Source: Candidatus Zhuqueibacterota bacterium (GTDB lineage Bacteria > Zhuqueibacterota > Zhuqueibacteria > Thermofontimicrobiales > Thermofontimicrobiaceae). From it: a stretch of 64,000 bases of DNA. The notes under the pieces were generated by a model. It was not told the origin of the DNA and did no database searches. It worked only from the letters and a program-made list of their open reading frames with translations. The stretch spans positions 64,001 through 128,000 of the forward strand of contig JBMOPW010000007.1 in assembly GCA_049322915.1 (NCBI GenBank), written 5' to 3'. Positions 729-61,399 of the stretch are shown here, one piece after another. Numbering within the stretch: position 1 is the first letter of the stretch; the number at the start of each line of letters is the position of its first letter. Made by a program: the position numbers and the translations under genes.

Positions 729-876
729 GTAATCGTTCACAGGTTCATCGTTCCGGGCTCAAGGTTAATGATAACGTACAGTTGATGACGAACTATTTGC
801 GCATAAAAAATGTTATGCGCAACCATATCCAAAACCCCATCCGGGAACGCTGAACCCGGAACCTGTGAACGGCTAC
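729..876. mobile_element. 148-bp MITE, GTAA-ended (IS66-like), copy 1
   Basis: TIRs GTAATCGTTCACAGGTTC / GAACCTGTGAACGGCTAC (16/18). Perfect 8-bp direct repeat AATCTTAA at 721-728 and 877-884. About 90% identical to 8175-8315. Confidence 0.9.
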
Positions 877-4874: not shown

Positions 4875-5200
4875 AGGCGACCCCCTGACTCGTGAGTCAG
4901 CGTTGCCTGTGTGAGCGAAGCCAGTGGCCGGCTTTCCACTTCGGGCAATCTGTGGAAATTTGTCTGCCGGGGTGCGTTGGATGGATTAGCAAAGGGATGG
5001 TGTCGGTGCTGCGGCGCGCGGATGGGAAAGGCGTCAGGCCGGGAAACAGATCGGCTGCGTGAAAGGCCGCGGAGTGCGTTGGTTGTACAGATGAAGATAC
5101 CTGGAAAAAATCCGTTGGATTTGTTCATTCAAAAACCTCTTGTTCAGCTATGTTATGCCGCCGTTTGTTTTTAAAAACACGGTGCATTTATGTTAGCTAA

Positions 5201-5361
5201 CCTGCATTATTCATCGTACTTTTAAAGGAGGCTGGCTAACCTGAATGGTGCTCTTTTTAGAATAAACATATAAAAACTGAGTTTCAAAATAGCTTAGTCT
5301 TTAGCTAATTGAAAATCTGAATGTTGACTCAAATTATGAGCAAGTTCATGAATAATTCAGG
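5201..5361. mobile_element. 161-bp MITE family 2 (CC-ended, 4-bp CTAA duplication; IS1380-like ends), copy 1
   Basis: TIRs CCTGCATTATTCAT / ATGAATAATTCAGG (13/14). CTAA on both sides (5197-5200, 5362-5365). 12 mismatches in 161 nt against the inverted copy at 61078-61238. Confidence 0.88.
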
Positions 5362-6360
5362 CTAAATATTCAACACCGACTCAAGACTTGCTCTGAATTG
5401 GTTTTCATCTTCGTTGTTGTAAAACTGTACGCCAACCAAGCGGTACTTTTTGTCTTCAAGCGTCAGCAATTTGGTTTCAAACTCTGATTTGATTGTATTG
5501 AGAAAATTCAGTTTCCACGGCTCGGCTTTTTGCAGTATCTTTGCTTTTGGCTCGATGAAAAGCTGGTAAGTGAGTAGCCTGCCGCTTTTCTCTCGCAGGA
5601 ACAAAACAAAGTCTGGCTGGAAGGCTTGACCATTGGCATAGTTGTAGATTGCAAAATGCCCTTCGTTGCGCAGAAGATAGATATGCTCGTATTGCGCTTG
5701 TAGTTTTTGCATGTGTCTGTCCAGCATACGCACAAAGGCTTTTTCTTCGCTCGTTCCGTAGATGGTGTTGAAGGCAAACCAATCTTTGTCGGAGACGAAA
5801 TGCTCAAACTGCGTGTCGTCTGCGGCGCGAGGGTTTTTGGCGTCGAATTTTAGCGCCTTGTCTTTGAAGATTTCATGCACCCAATTGCGTCTGAAGTCTC
5901 GCGTGCCTTCGTAGTCGGTGATTTGCTGGCGGATTTCGGCTTCGATTTGACTCATCAGGCCCGACACGGCGGCGAGTTTTTCAGAGCGGTTGTCGTCCAG
6001 CCAGTACATATTGCCCTGAAAGGTGATTTCCAGCCCGCCGAGAAAATCGTCCGATGCGATAAAGTCGCGAATGGAGGCCAGATGGGGAAAATAGCGTTTG
6101 AGTGAGGCAAAGGTAAAGAACGGGTTGCGCGCGATGGCAGATTGAACGATGTTGCGCTCGATGTCTCGCACCTTTACGTCCTGACGGGTTTCGTCTTCCA
6201 CCACCCAGCCTTTTTTCCCGCGCGAAGCGTCCAGCACGACGGTCGCGCCGCCGTGACCCGTGGCGATGACGTGGAGTTTTTGAATCGTGGTGAAGCAGAT
6301 ATTGATGTCGCTGGGGTTGACCGCTTCAAAGTTCTCGACAGGCGTCACGCGCACGCGGCG

Positions 6361-8174: not shown

Positions 8175-8315
8175 GTAACCGCTCGCAGGTTCATCGTTCA
8201 AGGTTAATGATAACGTACAGTTGATAACGGACTCGTTGAGCATACAAAATGTTTCGCGCAACCAAATCCAAAACCCCAACCGGGAACGCTGAACCCGGAA
8301 CCTGTGAACGGTTAC
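8175..8315. mobile_element. 141-bp MITE, GTAA-ended (IS66-like), copy 2
   Basis: TIRs GTAACCGCTCGCAGGTTC / GAACCTGTGAACGGTTAC. Perfect 8-bp direct repeat GCCACAAA at 8167-8174 and 8316-8323. Confidence 0.9.
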
Positions 8316-15811: not shown

Positions 15812-16127
15812 GTCATTGCTCAGGTTTCAGGTTTAAAGGTTTCAGGTTCCGGGTTAAAAAATTTTCGTCGCTATTCAGGCATATAGTCTTGCCACGAAGT
15901 CGCCAAACCACCAAGTGACACGAAGATGTCATATTATTCATTCGTATTTGGTGAGATTCAATTTTTCTTAAACTAAGTTCAGCTTTTCAGAATCGATAAT
16001 TTTGATGTATCTTTTTTTTCGTGCCTTTGAGACTTGGTGGCTGAACAGATACGAATAGTCATTTACAAAATATACATAATGAAATGATTCTAACCTTGAA
16101 CCCTGAACCAGCCAACCTGAGAGTTAC
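15812..16127. mobile_element. Degenerate GTAA-type MITE with heptamer arms and a probable nested element (15867-16052)
   Basis: Ends GTCATTGCTCAGGTT / AACCTGAGAGTTAC. Flanks TGAGAAAC (15804-15811) and CGAGAAAC (16128-16135). Inner ends GTCGCTATTCAG / CTGAACAGATAC. Confidence 0.7.
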
Positions 16128-34539: not shown

Positions 34540-34605
34540 CGGTTTTACAATCAATGCATCGACTTTTTCAGGTGAATCTCAGGAATCCGAATCACTCCGT
34601 TATTC

Positions 34606-34771
34606 GTAACTATACAAGTTGTTAGGTTCATCGTTCAAAGTTGAAAGTGAATGACCTTTCCTGGTCGATTCCCGCGCTGGTTGCCGGTGTTGAATTGCTT
34701 CAGTTAGTTTAATTTTAATCTCTTGTAAACCTTGACCTGGCATCTTTGGAACTTTGAACTGGAATGGTTGC
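34606..34771. mobile_element. Degenerate GTAA-ended MITE with heptamer arms (left member of a tandem pair)
   Basis: Ends GTAACTATACAAGTT / AACTGGAATGGTTGC (11/15). Shares AGGTTCATCGTTC with copies 1 and 2. Flanked by CGTTATTC (34598-34605) and CGATATTA (34772-34779). Confidence 0.65.
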
Positions 34772-34906
34772 CGATATTAGTAACCGATCACAGGGTGGTT
34801 AAGAATGACAGGATAACAGGATGTTTGGGATAGACAGGATTAATAAACTTTAGCTCTTTATCATGTTAATCAAAACATAATCGTGTAAATCACAAAAGGC
34901 TGCGTA

Positions 34907-35352
34907 ATGGAACTTGCAAGCTTGACTGAAAAAATTATTGGCTGTGCTTACAAAGTATATAACATGTTAGGATTTGGTTTTTTGGAGTCTGTTTACCCCG
35001 TGTAATAAAACAAATAGAAATTAATAGCAAGAGAAACAATAGCATATTACACGGGGTGAATGAAAATGCCCTGACAATTGAATTAAAAACAATGGGATTT
35101 GCTGTAGAAAGACAAAAACCCATAAAGGTTAATTATGAAGGAGTAGTCGTCGGCAATTTTAAAGCGGATATCATTGTCGACGAGCTGATCATCATTGAAT
35201 TGAAATCCGTAGAAAAAATAGTAAAGGAGTTTGAAGTCCAGTTGGTGAATTATCTAACGGCCACTATCAAACCAGTAGGCTTATTGCTGAATTTCTCTCC
35301 ACATAAGGTAGAAGTAAAAAGAAAGGTGAGGATATTACCGGATAGAGAATAA
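34907..35352 (+). pseudogene. GxxExxY family protein (PD-(D/E)xK-like) interrupted by a 65-bp insertion
   Basis: MELASLTEKIIGCAYKVYNMLGFGFLESVY | ENALTIELK...FKADIIVDELIIIELKSV...QLVNYLTAT...GLLLNF. Removing 34996-35060 restores a 126-aa ORF. Confidence 0.9.
34996..35060. repeat. 65-bp hairpin insertion element
   Basis: Perfect 12-bp inverted repeat CCCCGTGTAATA (34996-35007) / TATTACACGGGG (35045-35056) around an A-rich loop. Confidence 0.85.
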
Positions 35353-35571
35353 TCCGGTAAATCATTATCATCCTGTTATCCTGTCCAAAGTAAACAAATA
35401 CAACTTTTGATCCCCTGGGATCAATTACCGATATTCAAATTTAACCTAATTAAAATTCAGGAATAAGCGATAATATAGATAACCCGAATTCCCCGGCGAC
35501 GAAGACCGGAATGATATGTAAATGGATATGTTGAAGTGTCAAGTTTTCATTTAAAAAGAGGATCTGCGACA

Positions 35572-36516
35572 GTGAACACGGAAGAATCAGTATCTCAAAA
35601 TACCAATCAAGCGCCAAAGGAATTTTACCAGATCAGCCTGGATCCTGGTGCGGAACTGCCAGTGCGATTGCATGAGTTGGTGGATAAATTCAATATCTGT
35701 TTTCGGGATAATATGTTCAATCTGGTCGTGGACATGGGCAAGGTAAAATTGCCTCCGACAAAATTTATCGTCGCATTGATTGAAGCCACCTCCGAAGCGA
35801 GGCGCATGGGCGGCGATATTAAAATTATCAATATCAGCCCCTCGGTCATGAATAACCTCGTCACGTTTTCGCCCAAGACGTATTTGAATATCGAACCGTC
35901 GGAAAGGCATGCGTTGCGCGAGTTCGGTGAAACTTTTGATAATGAAATTGAGTTTGATATAAACGACAAAATAAAAATTGCTCTTCCGCAGCAGCGAGGT
36001 AGTGCCTCTCCAAAACGTGTGGAATCGAAACCACAGCCAGCGGCAGCGGTCCAGGACCCACCGTATGAGCTGGATCTGGAAGCGATGGATAAAATTCGCG
36101 TCTATAGCAAAGCCGAAAATCTCTACAAGATTTGTGATTTTGTCCTGGAACGCGCGGAGTGCGCCGGCTTCGATGAGCGGGAGCTCGGGAAGATCAAAGT
36201 GACTGTATACGAAGCGTGCCTGAATGTCGTGGAGCATGCTTATTTCTCCAATCCGGACTACATTATCGATGTCTATGTGGATTATAACGAGGAGCGATTC
36301 ACCATTGTCATTCAGGACTGGGGTGAAAGTTTCGAGTTCAATCCTTCGATTTCATACGATGTGGAACAGGCTGTAAAAGATAGGCGGACAGGCGGATTTG
36401 GTCTGCATATCATCAAGCGAACCGTCGATGATATCTATTACATGAGCGATGAGAAGCTGGGAAATCGGTTGGTCTTAATAAAAAAAATTACGGATAATAA
36501 TCAAATCATTCGGTGA
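35572..36516 (+). CDS. Degenerate STAS domain fused to an RsbW-like anti-sigma factor Ser/Thr kinase (HATPase)
   Basis: N-terminal LVVDMGKV...ARRMGGDIKIINISPSV. C-terminal EACLNVVEHAY, IQDWGESF, GGFGLHIIKRTVD. Start uncertain (35536 or 35572). Confidence 0.8.
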   Translation: MNTEESVSQNTNQAPKEFYQISLDPGAELPVRLHELVDKFNICFRDNMFNLVVDMGKVKLPPTKFIVALIEATSEARRMGGDIKIINISPSVMNNLVTFSPKTYLNIEPSERHALREFGETFDNEIEFDINDKIKIALPQQRGSASPKRVESKPQPAAAVQDPPYELDLEAMDKIRVYSKAENLYKICDFVLERAECAGFDERELGKIKVTVYEACLNVVEHAYFSNPDYIIDVYVDYNEERFTIVIQDWGESFEFNPSISYDVEQAVKDRRTGGFGLHIIKRTVDDIYYMSDEKLGNRLVLIKKITDNNQIIR

Positions 36517-60989: not shown

Positions 60990-61077
60990 ATTATATCCGT
61001 CTCCGCGCGACGCAGACATTGATACAGGCGATGACGTGAAAAAAATCTCAGTAACTTTATCGCCTCGAAGTCGCTAA

Positions 61078-61238
61078 CCTAAAATATTCATGAACTTGCT
61101 CAGAATTTGAGTCAACATTCAGATTTTCAACTAGCTAAATACTAAGCTATTTTGAAGCTCAGTTTTTGTACGTTTATTCTAAAAAGAGCACCATTCAGGT
61201 TAGCCAGCCTCCTTTAAAAATGCTATGAAAAATGCAGG
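61078..61238. mobile_element. 161-bp MITE family 2, copy 2 (inverted relative to 5201-5361)
   Basis: CTAA on both sides (61074-61077, 61239-61242); 149/161 identical to the reverse complement of copy 1. Confidence 0.88.
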
Positions 61239-61399
61239 CTAAGATATAAAGAATAAGTAGGTTCAAAAAATATAATTGTACTTAAATTTCTAAAATGGAT
61301 TTTTATAATCGAAACAATTCAGGCAAGAATACATACCTGAATAGTATGTCCGCGTGAAAACTCAGTGGAGCAAATTATAAACATAGAAGGAGAAACAAA

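Follow-up and report, generated by a model that had tools for sequence, protein, structure and literature searches.

A GxxExxY gene between inverted arms inside an IS66-type, transposase-less mobile element of a Zhuqueibacterota genome

Introduction

How does a small gene spread through a genome when nothing beside it encodes a transposase? This question is raised by a 64,000-nucleotide stretch of a Candidatus Zhuqueibacterota bacterium genome (GCA_049322915.1, contig JBMOPW010000007.1, positions 64,001 to 128,000; hereafter "the window," meaning the whole stretch that was analyzed), in which a GxxExxY gene lies within a 649-bp element ("element 2") that is bounded by 16-bp terminal inverted repeats and holds, inside these, a second pair of inverted repeats ("arms") around the gene. 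A decayed 166-bp element ("element 1") stands directly upstream, and similar 8-mers precede, separate, and follow the two (Table 1). The function of the GxxExxY family was listed as unknown in a 2012 survey in Nucleic Acids Research (PMC3424549). An initial annotation of the window, made from its letters, had proposed a two-tier system in which the outer ends are moved in trans and the inner repeats delimit an exchangeable unit. Every feature that it listed lies where it was placed, with the caveat that the three 8-mers are alike rather than identical (neighbors agree at 6/8 and 7/8 positions, the first and third at 7/8). We find that element 2 is a mobile element with IS66-type ends and that a two-tier organization is probable.

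The assembly of the window's genome (G000) comprises 45 contigs and 6.25 Mb and is 96% complete. It was compared with class-level relatives—among them G001 (same genus), G004 (same family), and G024 (same class)—and with contigs from metagenome runs, of which X1 holds the stretch best and is probably its source.

Results

Element 2 has multiplied recently

A BLAST search of the genome returned 15 left and 15 right ends of element 2, 14 of each being ~96–100% identical to the window copy and one belonging to an older copy (86–93%), and similarity stopped exactly at GTAA or TTAC in 30/30 ends. Five copies lie wholly inside contigs; the others stand at contig ends, where the repeat has broken the assembly, and these ends overlap by 127 bases. 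When flanks were paired, the adjoining 8-mers agreed at 8/8 positions in nine of the 15 pairings (e.g., AACTGTCG, CTTAAGCC, and TTTTGGAA), at 7/8 in four, at 5/8 in one, and at 1/8 in one, a leftover pair. Ten contig-end pairs were matched up by means of their 8-mers, and seven of these ten share an identical 8-mer, as against ~0.0015 chance matches among 10 x 10 random 8-mers. The duplicated 8-mers are AT-rich (GC 0.30 vs 0.49 for the genome). Element 2 is thus a real mobile element, recently multiplied to ~15 copies in this genome. Contig depths in X1 (~560–790 for single pieces of element 2, 65–77 for flanks) point the same way, and X2, a run from another study, includes a 622-bp contig joining element 2 to the flank of the C34 site.

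The 16-bp terminal inverted repeats reported in the initial annotation are present: those of the window copy are 13/16 complementary, the right one reading CCCTGGGATCAATTAC (reverse complement GTAATTGATCCCAGGG), and most other copies read CCCTGTGATC, with a complementarity of 14/16. Open frames (221 and 204 aa) span two of the rebuilt empty sites, C7:302/C1:169733 and C34:216/C29:127, and the insertions there may have broken genes.

The outer ends are shared with IS66-family elements

Element 2 lacks a transposase gene, as the initial annotation had claimed: a profile search of its open reading frames (ORFs) gave GxxExxY as the sole family match. IS66 inverted repeats are 20–30 bp long, start with GTAAGCG, and are accompanied by 8-bp direct repeats (PMC11946415). 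Among IS66 loci of the class, 30 were scanned for ends (20 from the search and 10 fetched; these tallies and those for PF13366 below include the unpublished genomes G116 and G120, on which no specific claim rests). Matching ends were found solely at L044 in G024, a 2438-bp element with ends GTATCCGATCACAGGGTA that agree with window positions 34780–34797 at 17/18 bases. Its transposase has the domains DUF6444, zf-IS66, and DDE_Tnp_IS66 (PF03050, 1.2e-32), and it also encodes a DruA-like ORF (PF14236, 3.2e-39). The same ORF pair recurs at L182 in G004, where the transposase is 53% identical to that of L044 and is cut by the contig end, and where the element end, GTAACCAATCACAGGG, agrees with the left terminal repeat of the window at 15/16 bases. 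G004 also carries a deletion derivative of the armed cassette with both ends exact and a duplication, AAAACATC, of 8/8. Another IS66 locus of this genome, L042 (G004:C562), was considered as the cognate element and set aside, its ends being different (GTAAAACCTCAC).

Metagenome contigs extend this picture, with 22 loci encoding relatives of this IS66-family transposase. The end motif lies ~46 bp beyond the transposase gene in 21/22, and the exact 16-mer of the window stands beside the transposase in 13/22 (including L232, L234, and L227). Three of the 22 loci are whole elements of 2437–2443 bp, of which two carry the exact 16-mer on each end, and a 1553-bp form has a duplication, CTTTAAAG, of 8/8. 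The proposal that GTAA ends with 8-bp duplications are of IS66 type is thereby supported, since the same 16-bp end occurs on elements that encode DDE_Tnp_IS66; judged by this shared end, the outer ends of element 2 are derived from an IS66-family insertion sequence (IS). As there is no transposase inside element 2 and IS66-family elements with the same ends occur elsewhere, the cassette would have been moved in trans, as first suggested, and the cognate family found in relatives and metagenomes makes this the best reading of the outer tier.

As a separate observation, the DruA-like ORF (PF14236, the Druantia DruA family) lies upstream of the transposase at both loci (L044 2218–3096; L182 835–1716), an odd partner for a transposase.

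Miniature transposable elements with inverted repeats (MITEs) carry the same kind of end. In the window's genome, 133 ends fit a loose form of the end motif, including those of three elements near positions 729, 8175, and 15812 (Table 1), and four pairs of such ends lie >700 bp apart; a self-megablast of the genome found no IS-like multi-copy repeat over 1 kb. Elsewhere, MITEs of 139–474 bp with the same end and 8-bp duplications occur in metagenome-assembled genomes (MAGs) labeled KSB1, Caldithrix, Desulfobulbia, and others. The three window elements had been described as related empty elements. Their GTAA-type ends and duplications uphold the relationship, but the inner arms are absent: none of the 38 genome matches to the inner repeat (see below) falls inside them, and they are therefore kin to element 2 by their ends only.

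An inner pair of arms bounds the gene

Inside the terminal repeats, the 17-mer GACAGGATAACAGGATG forms a perfect inverted pair, as the initial annotation had it, with two window matches at ≤3 mismatches where shuffles average 0.13. This 17-mer forms the core of longer arms (36 nt, 81% complementary), each consisting of four phased units in which GGAT falls at arm positions 5, 13, 22, and 31. A search of the genome with the 16-bp arm core (≤2 mismatches) gave 38 matches, 36 of them in element 2 or in a 267-bp sister family. This sister family is gene-less and has an unrelated, non-coding core of ~110 bp; its C20 copy has a duplication, CTTCTGGA, of 8/8. The 16-bp left end and the 16-bp arm cores of the sister are letter-perfect and its right end agrees at 14/16, although its flanking parts are only ~74–77% identical to the cassette, which argues that both ends and arms are under constraint. 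Neither the intact element nor the 267-bp sister has a match in Rfam at E up to 1. The arm core (34809–34823) contains a 10-mer, GGATAACAGG, which we take to be conserved in 23S rRNA and to lie in the I-SceI site; the likeness is probably a coincidence.

The arms also part company with the IS66-type shell. In G019 and G025, a gene of 66–71% DNA identity lies between the same arms, GAC(A/G)GGAT(A/T)AAC(A/T)GGAT, and IS66 ends were not seen; in G023 (L020), ends and arms are present and the gene is absent. Contigs from three other metagenomes (X2–X4) match only 34801/34807–34841 and 35350/35353–35385/35386, with unrelated DNA beyond: homology starts at 34807 in X2 and at 34801 in X3, and it ends at 35385–35386 in all three. 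Homology likewise ends at the arms in L016 and L021.

A search of 125 class genomes for PF13366, the family of the GxxExxY protein, was positive in 108, often with several members per genome. Inverted arms up- and downstream of the gene reached z ≥4 at 16 of 29 scorable loci (L197 was left out of the arm test, its flank being too short). Arm units are of several types (CACGAA, CACAGAG, CGCAGAG, CxCAAAG, and xxxxGAT), and these types cluster on the protein tree, with 15 changes vs a shuffled mean of 23.5 and 0/200 shuffles as low (the row for L016, with a branch length of 10, is faulty and is to be disregarded). A stronger point than this clustering is that, between protein clades, all units of both arms change together. 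Lineages also differ in the arm class that the same IS66-type ends enclose, three classes being seen: ACAGGAT in this genome and one KSB1 MAG, CACAGAA in a second KSB1 MAG, and TAAGGT in a MAG labeled Caldithrix.

Individual MITEs of these last kinds, with IS66-type ends and 8-bp duplications, were noted in the Caldithrix MAG (TAAGGT-type arms; L076 3201–3572 and 5763–6236; L123 and L124, 3201–3674) and in the KSB1 MAG (CACAGAA-type arms; L108 3068–3216).

The gene encodes a small nuclease-like protein and is often broken

The gene between the inner repeats was confirmed as GxxExxY (PDDEXK_3), and the window copy is broken by a 65-bp insert, its two halves scoring 92.1 and 30.2 bits against PF13366 (cut-off 22). 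Intact copies (C34:463781, C26:199461, and C14:373929) encode a 126-aa form (P0001) that matches TIGR04256 at 1.2e-40 (138.5 bits vs a cut-off of 35). Among 36 sequences, the PD-(D/E)xK residues D66 and K78 never vary, and E76 is ≥90% conserved. The predicted structure (predicted local distance difference test score 91.4) has Cas4 SSO0001, lambda exonuclease, and Hjc as its nearest solved folds, with a Foldseek match to 4ic1 (E 1.1e-04, query-normalized template-modeling score [TMq] 0.61); the Cas_Cas4 profile matches the protein weakly, and a PDB sequence search gave 0 matches at E up to 1. Homodimer prediction scored 0.00 vs a mark of 0.42, which speaks neither for nor against a dimer.

The insert interrupts the name-giving GxxExxY motif and puts TAA TAA in frame; without it, element 2 is 584 bp long. 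With four flanking bases it forms a 17–18-bp stem (RNA fold −24.6 kcal/mol, z −3.0). It is present at six loci, lacking at four, and unscorable at five, and in X1 the insert-bearing piece has a depth of 557 vs 193 for the insert-free joint, so that the broken form is the commoner; a joint skipping 34995–35059 was seen in runs X1, X2, and X4. Broken copies have thus spread too, and therefore the gene is not needed in cis; they have done no worse in this than intact copies, which fits movement in trans. Outside element 2 copies the insert was not found in the genome, and the 125 class genomes gave only short AT-rich matches (E 2e-4 or weaker). Regarding it as a mobile mini-element was rejected for now, as the arms of the insert occur nowhere else in the genome, and the hairpin-bearing copies could not be taken as one clade, their variant patterns being mosaic in a way that makes recombination and chimeric contig ends indistinguishable.

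Read in frame, the insert gives GTG TAA TAA, 53 nt, and GTG AAT GAA, with the 17–18-bp stem. Matched take-off and landing codons, a stop, and a stem-loop are thus present in its sequence, as in programmed translational bypass of the T4 gene 60 type. This likeness may well be chance, and that the insert would act as a bypass site is a long shot.

Element 2 inserted beside an older element

The young element 2 sits exactly on the right-hand 8-mer of the old element 1, whose own flanking 8-mers agree at 6/8 and whose right end has decayed to GGTTGC. Element 1 has five longer matches (74–83% identity) and shorter fragments elsewhere in the genome and has AGGTTCATCGTTC in common with the MITEs at 729 and 8175. 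With ~65 such MITEs in 6.25 Mb, we estimate the chance of an exact hit on a MITE-flanking 8-mer in 15 insertions at ~3e-4, or ~3e-3 if a tenth of the genome is open. We read this landing on the duplication of an older MITE as end-targeting by the transposase. Set against this, the tandem is a single case among 15 insertions, and a crude genome scan found no second 8-bp-spaced tandem, though the same scan missed the case in the window because the end of element 1 is too decayed. The earlier idea that reuse of one target builds arrays is thus weak.

The initial annotation had also called for an empty site in a relative. G001 keeps both neighboring genes and has neither element, and its matched parts stand 68 bp apart; the same interval in the window is 894 bp, or 63 bp when the two elements and two 8-mers are subtracted. 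Judging from this spacing, G001 carries the empty site of both elements, but at 76–80% identity the single 8-mer expected there is unrecognizable.

Discussion

A two-tier element and its alternatives

We consider it probable that element 2 is a two-tier element, in which an IS66-derived shell is moved in trans and an armed GxxExxY module is the cargo. The 16-bp terminal repeat pair and short spacers would have been taken from a ~2.44-kb IS66-family IS encoding a DruA-like ORF and DDE_Tnp_IS66, and an IS66 transposase acting in trans would recognize the GTAACCGATCACAGGG ends, move the whole 584/649-bp unit, and make the 8-bp duplications. The gene for this transposase may be unassembled, unbinned, or lost after the burst. 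The cargo would be a self-contained, class-wide module consisting of the 126-aa nuclease gene and arms in which four phased 7-base units recur every ~9 bp. The arms would be the recognition sites of the nuclease, and the module may once have entered, or been captured by, an IS66-derived MITE.

Several observations weigh against this account. PF03050 had 0 matches in the 96%-complete assembly of the window's genome, and tblastn with the L044 transposase and its partner ORF found nothing there better than E 0.6; because this assembly shows no such enzyme, the trans-acting transposase had to be drawn from other genomes. The three whole metagenome elements of 2437–2443 bp have no clean 8-bp duplication. 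In X1, no contig bridges an empty site of element 2, though contigs drop rare variants. As for the inner tier, the survey of other GxxExxY loci for inner repeats, which the initial annotation had recommended, succeeded at the 16 loci above but found no arms (z <2) at 7 of the 29 and weak ones (z 2–4) at 6, and gene–arm linkage alone would likewise make arm types cluster on the protein tree. That the inner repeats bound an exchangeable unit is favored by the sister with its other core, by homology ending at the arms, and by unit types following the protein tree, but no empty site for an arms-bounded unit was found: in G019 (L016), the flanks are without DNA-level orthologues in 25 relatives.

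Might the nuclease instead move the element itself? In an autonomous minimal IS, the GxxExxY nuclease would cut the ends or arms and move the whole unit without an IS66 transposase. Such an element would have GxxExxY as the sole gene between its inverted repeats, as is seen here, and could reach ~15 near-identical copies in an assembly with no IS66 transposase, the intact 126-aa copies perhaps acting in trans on broken ones. However, IS66-family elements with a DDE transposase of their own have exactly these 16-bp ends, the 8-bp duplications are an IS66 hallmark, arm-less and gene-less MITEs with the same ends also have clean duplications, and the gene is broken in at least 6 of 10 scorable copies, in keeping with the depths given above. 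We know of no PD-(D/E)xK enzyme for strand transfer with staggered joining, which we also count against an autonomous IS, and overall we regard it as highly improbable. Still more remote is an assembly artifact, in which collapsed or chimeric contig ends mimic many copies. Most copies do stand at contig ends with 127-base overlaps and show mosaic variant patterns, but five lie inside contigs with unique flanks, the contig-end flanks pair by identical 8-mers, and an independent metagenome supplies the 622-bp contig that ties the element to the C34 site; this explanation can hardly be entertained.

A different objection concerns the inner tier only, namely that the arms only serve to express a passenger gene (as promoter, operator, terminator, or mRNA-stabilizing stem) and that GxxExxY is ordinary cargo with a benefit to host or element, e.g., in defense, so that there is no second tier. 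The arms do sit just outside the gene, the left arm of L016 reads TTGACA, 16 bases, TAGATT—promoter-like by our own reading—and in the window's genome the sole unit seen to move is the outer one. On the contrary, the gene-less 267-bp sister retains letter-perfect arm cores on either side of unrelated sequence, gene-less arms occur in relatives and in other metagenomes, and from one protein clade to another the units of both arms all switch together. Nor was the region 34540–35540 richer than shuffles in such signals: it has 3 promoter-like sites vs a shuffle mean of 3.8, none of them in the left arm, and 2 terminator-like sites vs 0.7 (one within the right terminal repeat), the scan for both being uninformative. 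We judge that expression signals are unlikely to account for the arms.

Beyond the two-tier organization itself, we tentatively suggest—as a possibility that we would not yet call probable—that the GxxExxY nuclease and its arms form an independent, undescribed selfish module, in which the nuclease would recognize its own arms and which would repeatedly colonize, or be captured by, hairpin-like DNA such as MITE shells, thereby gaining a borrowed route of spread.

Relation to known systems

MITEs and mobile insertion cassettes (MICs) are transposase-less IS derivatives (PMC3129680, PMC5444012) that can be activated by a cognate IS (PMC3129680). Element 2 shares with them IS-type terminal repeats, target duplications, the lack of a transposase, a passenger gene, and activation by a related IS transposase, and its outer tier is an IS66-family MIC and thus of an already known kind. 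It differs in that the passenger is itself repeat-bounded, that a sister has the same arms around another core, and that the cognate IS is unseen in the assembly. With the IS66 family it shares the GTAA start, the 8-bp duplications, and the 16-bp end common to DDE_Tnp_IS66-encoding elements, whereas its ends read GTAACCG rather than GTAAGCG, it has no transposase, and the cognate IS has an upstream DruA-like ORF.

Repetitive extragenic palindromes (REPs), their doublets (REPINs), and the associated transposases (RAYTs) offer a further parallel: a small gene lies between inverted copies of its presumed target repeat, and gene-less doublets are dispersed. By comparison, the protein here has the PD-(D/E)xK fold of PF13366 rather than an HUH Y1 (IS200/IS605-like) one, the arms consist of phased 7-base units, and the sole mobility shown in this genome is of IS66 type. 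The predicted GxxExxY fold and the conserved D...E-x-K are shared with Cas4, lambda exonuclease, and Hjc (4ic1, 1avq, and 2wcw), but the GxxExxY protein has only 126 residues and an N-terminal GxxExxY helix motif and stands in no CRISPR or recombination context. In the literature searched on GxxExxY, PDDEXK_3, TIGR04256, and PF13366, there was no paper on mobility or flanking repeats. New here are the armed cassette that lies, with clean duplications, within an IS66 shell, a name for its cognate IS, and the series of intact, broken, and gene-less forms.

GxxExxY proteins are abundant (in one search, 7982 of 8000 candidates scored E 1e-5 or better), and this locus is a clean case of the gene traveling as a repeat-bounded module with a nameable vehicle. 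It separates what moves the DNA, the IS66 transposase, from the role of the nuclease and its arms, and it offers natural experimental controls in its intact, hairpin-broken, and gene-less versions, whose ends and arms are identical. Recognition of the arms by the nuclease, if real, would account for a very large family of intergenic repeats that stand unannotated in uncultured bacteria.

Other features of the locus and genome

The 996-bp spacer between the polyferredoxin-like and HATPase_c_2 genes is AT-rich, with a GC content of 0.31–0.44 vs 0.5–0.6 in the genes; the features that it contains are listed with others in Table 1.

TABLE 1. Features of element 2, its surroundings, and its relatives. 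Positions refer to the window unless a contig of the same genome (C) is given.
Feature	Position	Strand	Remarks
Polyferredoxin-like gene, 512 aa	33001..34539	+	Fer4 families, e.g., PF00037 3.8e-19, PF12801 4.8e-18
8-bp target copy 1, CGTTATTC; left duplication of element 1	34598..34605	.	Read directly; 7/8 to copy 3
Element 1, decayed 166-bp MITE of the GTAA-ended superfamily	34606..34771	.	Matches elsewhere in genome, aligned with flanks
8-bp target copy 2, CGATATTA; serves element 1 as right and element 2 as left duplication	34772..34779	.	
Element 2, 649-bp transposase-less cassette; IS66-type shell around armed GxxExxY cassette	34780..35428	+	
Left terminal inverted repeat, GTAACCGATCACAGGG	34780..34795	+	Same 16-mer on IS66-family element ends
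Left arm of inner cassette, 36 nt	34807..34842	+	Holds perfect 17-mer at 34807–34823
GxxExxY gene part 1, codons 1–29 and first base of codon 30	34907..34994	+	PF13366 E 6.4e-07, profile 2–27
65-bp insert between codons for Y30 and E31, splitting the gene	34995..35059	+	Absent from 4 internal copies
GxxExxY gene part 2, with stop	35060..35352	+	PF13366 E 4.1e-26 (98 residues), profile 28–116
Right arm of inner cassette	35350..35385	-	Holds perfect 17-mer at 35369–35385
Right terminal inverted repeat	35413..35428	-	
8-bp target copy 3, CGATATTC; right duplication of element 2	35429..35436	.	Read directly
HATPase_c_2 kinase-like gene, 326 aa; downstream neighbor	35536..36516	+	PF13581 9.2e-23
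148-bp MITE, GTAA ends GTAATCGTTCACAGGTTC and GAACCTGTGAACGGCTAC, no inner arms	729..876	.	Duplication AATCTTAA 8/8
141-bp MITE, same family as the MITE at 729	8175..8315	.	Duplication GCCACAAA 8/8
316-bp element, more diverged ends of the same type	15812..16127	.	Duplication TGAGAAAC/CGAGAAAC 7/8
Same 65-bp insert elsewhere in genome	C7:20-88, C37:50-118, C15:16744-16812, C14:1092114-1092182, C16:323543-323609		
267-bp sister family copies	C20:17494-17760, C14:543635-543910, C33/C42 contig ends		

A 170-bp MITE with ~90 genome copies at 93–99% identity also occurs in the window (5198–5364 and 61074–61242) and, for example, at C26:198707-198876. One GxxExxY cassette abuts a copy of it (C26:198878) and another lies within one (C26:133306), but its ends (TTAGCCTGCATTATTCAT ... 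ATGAATAATTCAGGTTAG) are unrelated, and it was rejected as a part of this system.

Two GxxExxY paralogues of the same genome have repeats of their own. L055 (G000:C13:110558-111057) has about five 102-bp repeats in tandem after it, every one with a small hairpin of ACAGGAT-type units (GGATAGACAGGATAAACAGGAT ... ATCCTGCGCATCCTGTTCATCC). L053 (G000:C34:451290-452625) is flanked by a dispersed ~136-bp repeat family of ATCCGCG, ATCTGCG, and ATCCGTG units, of which dozens of partial copies lie across the genome.

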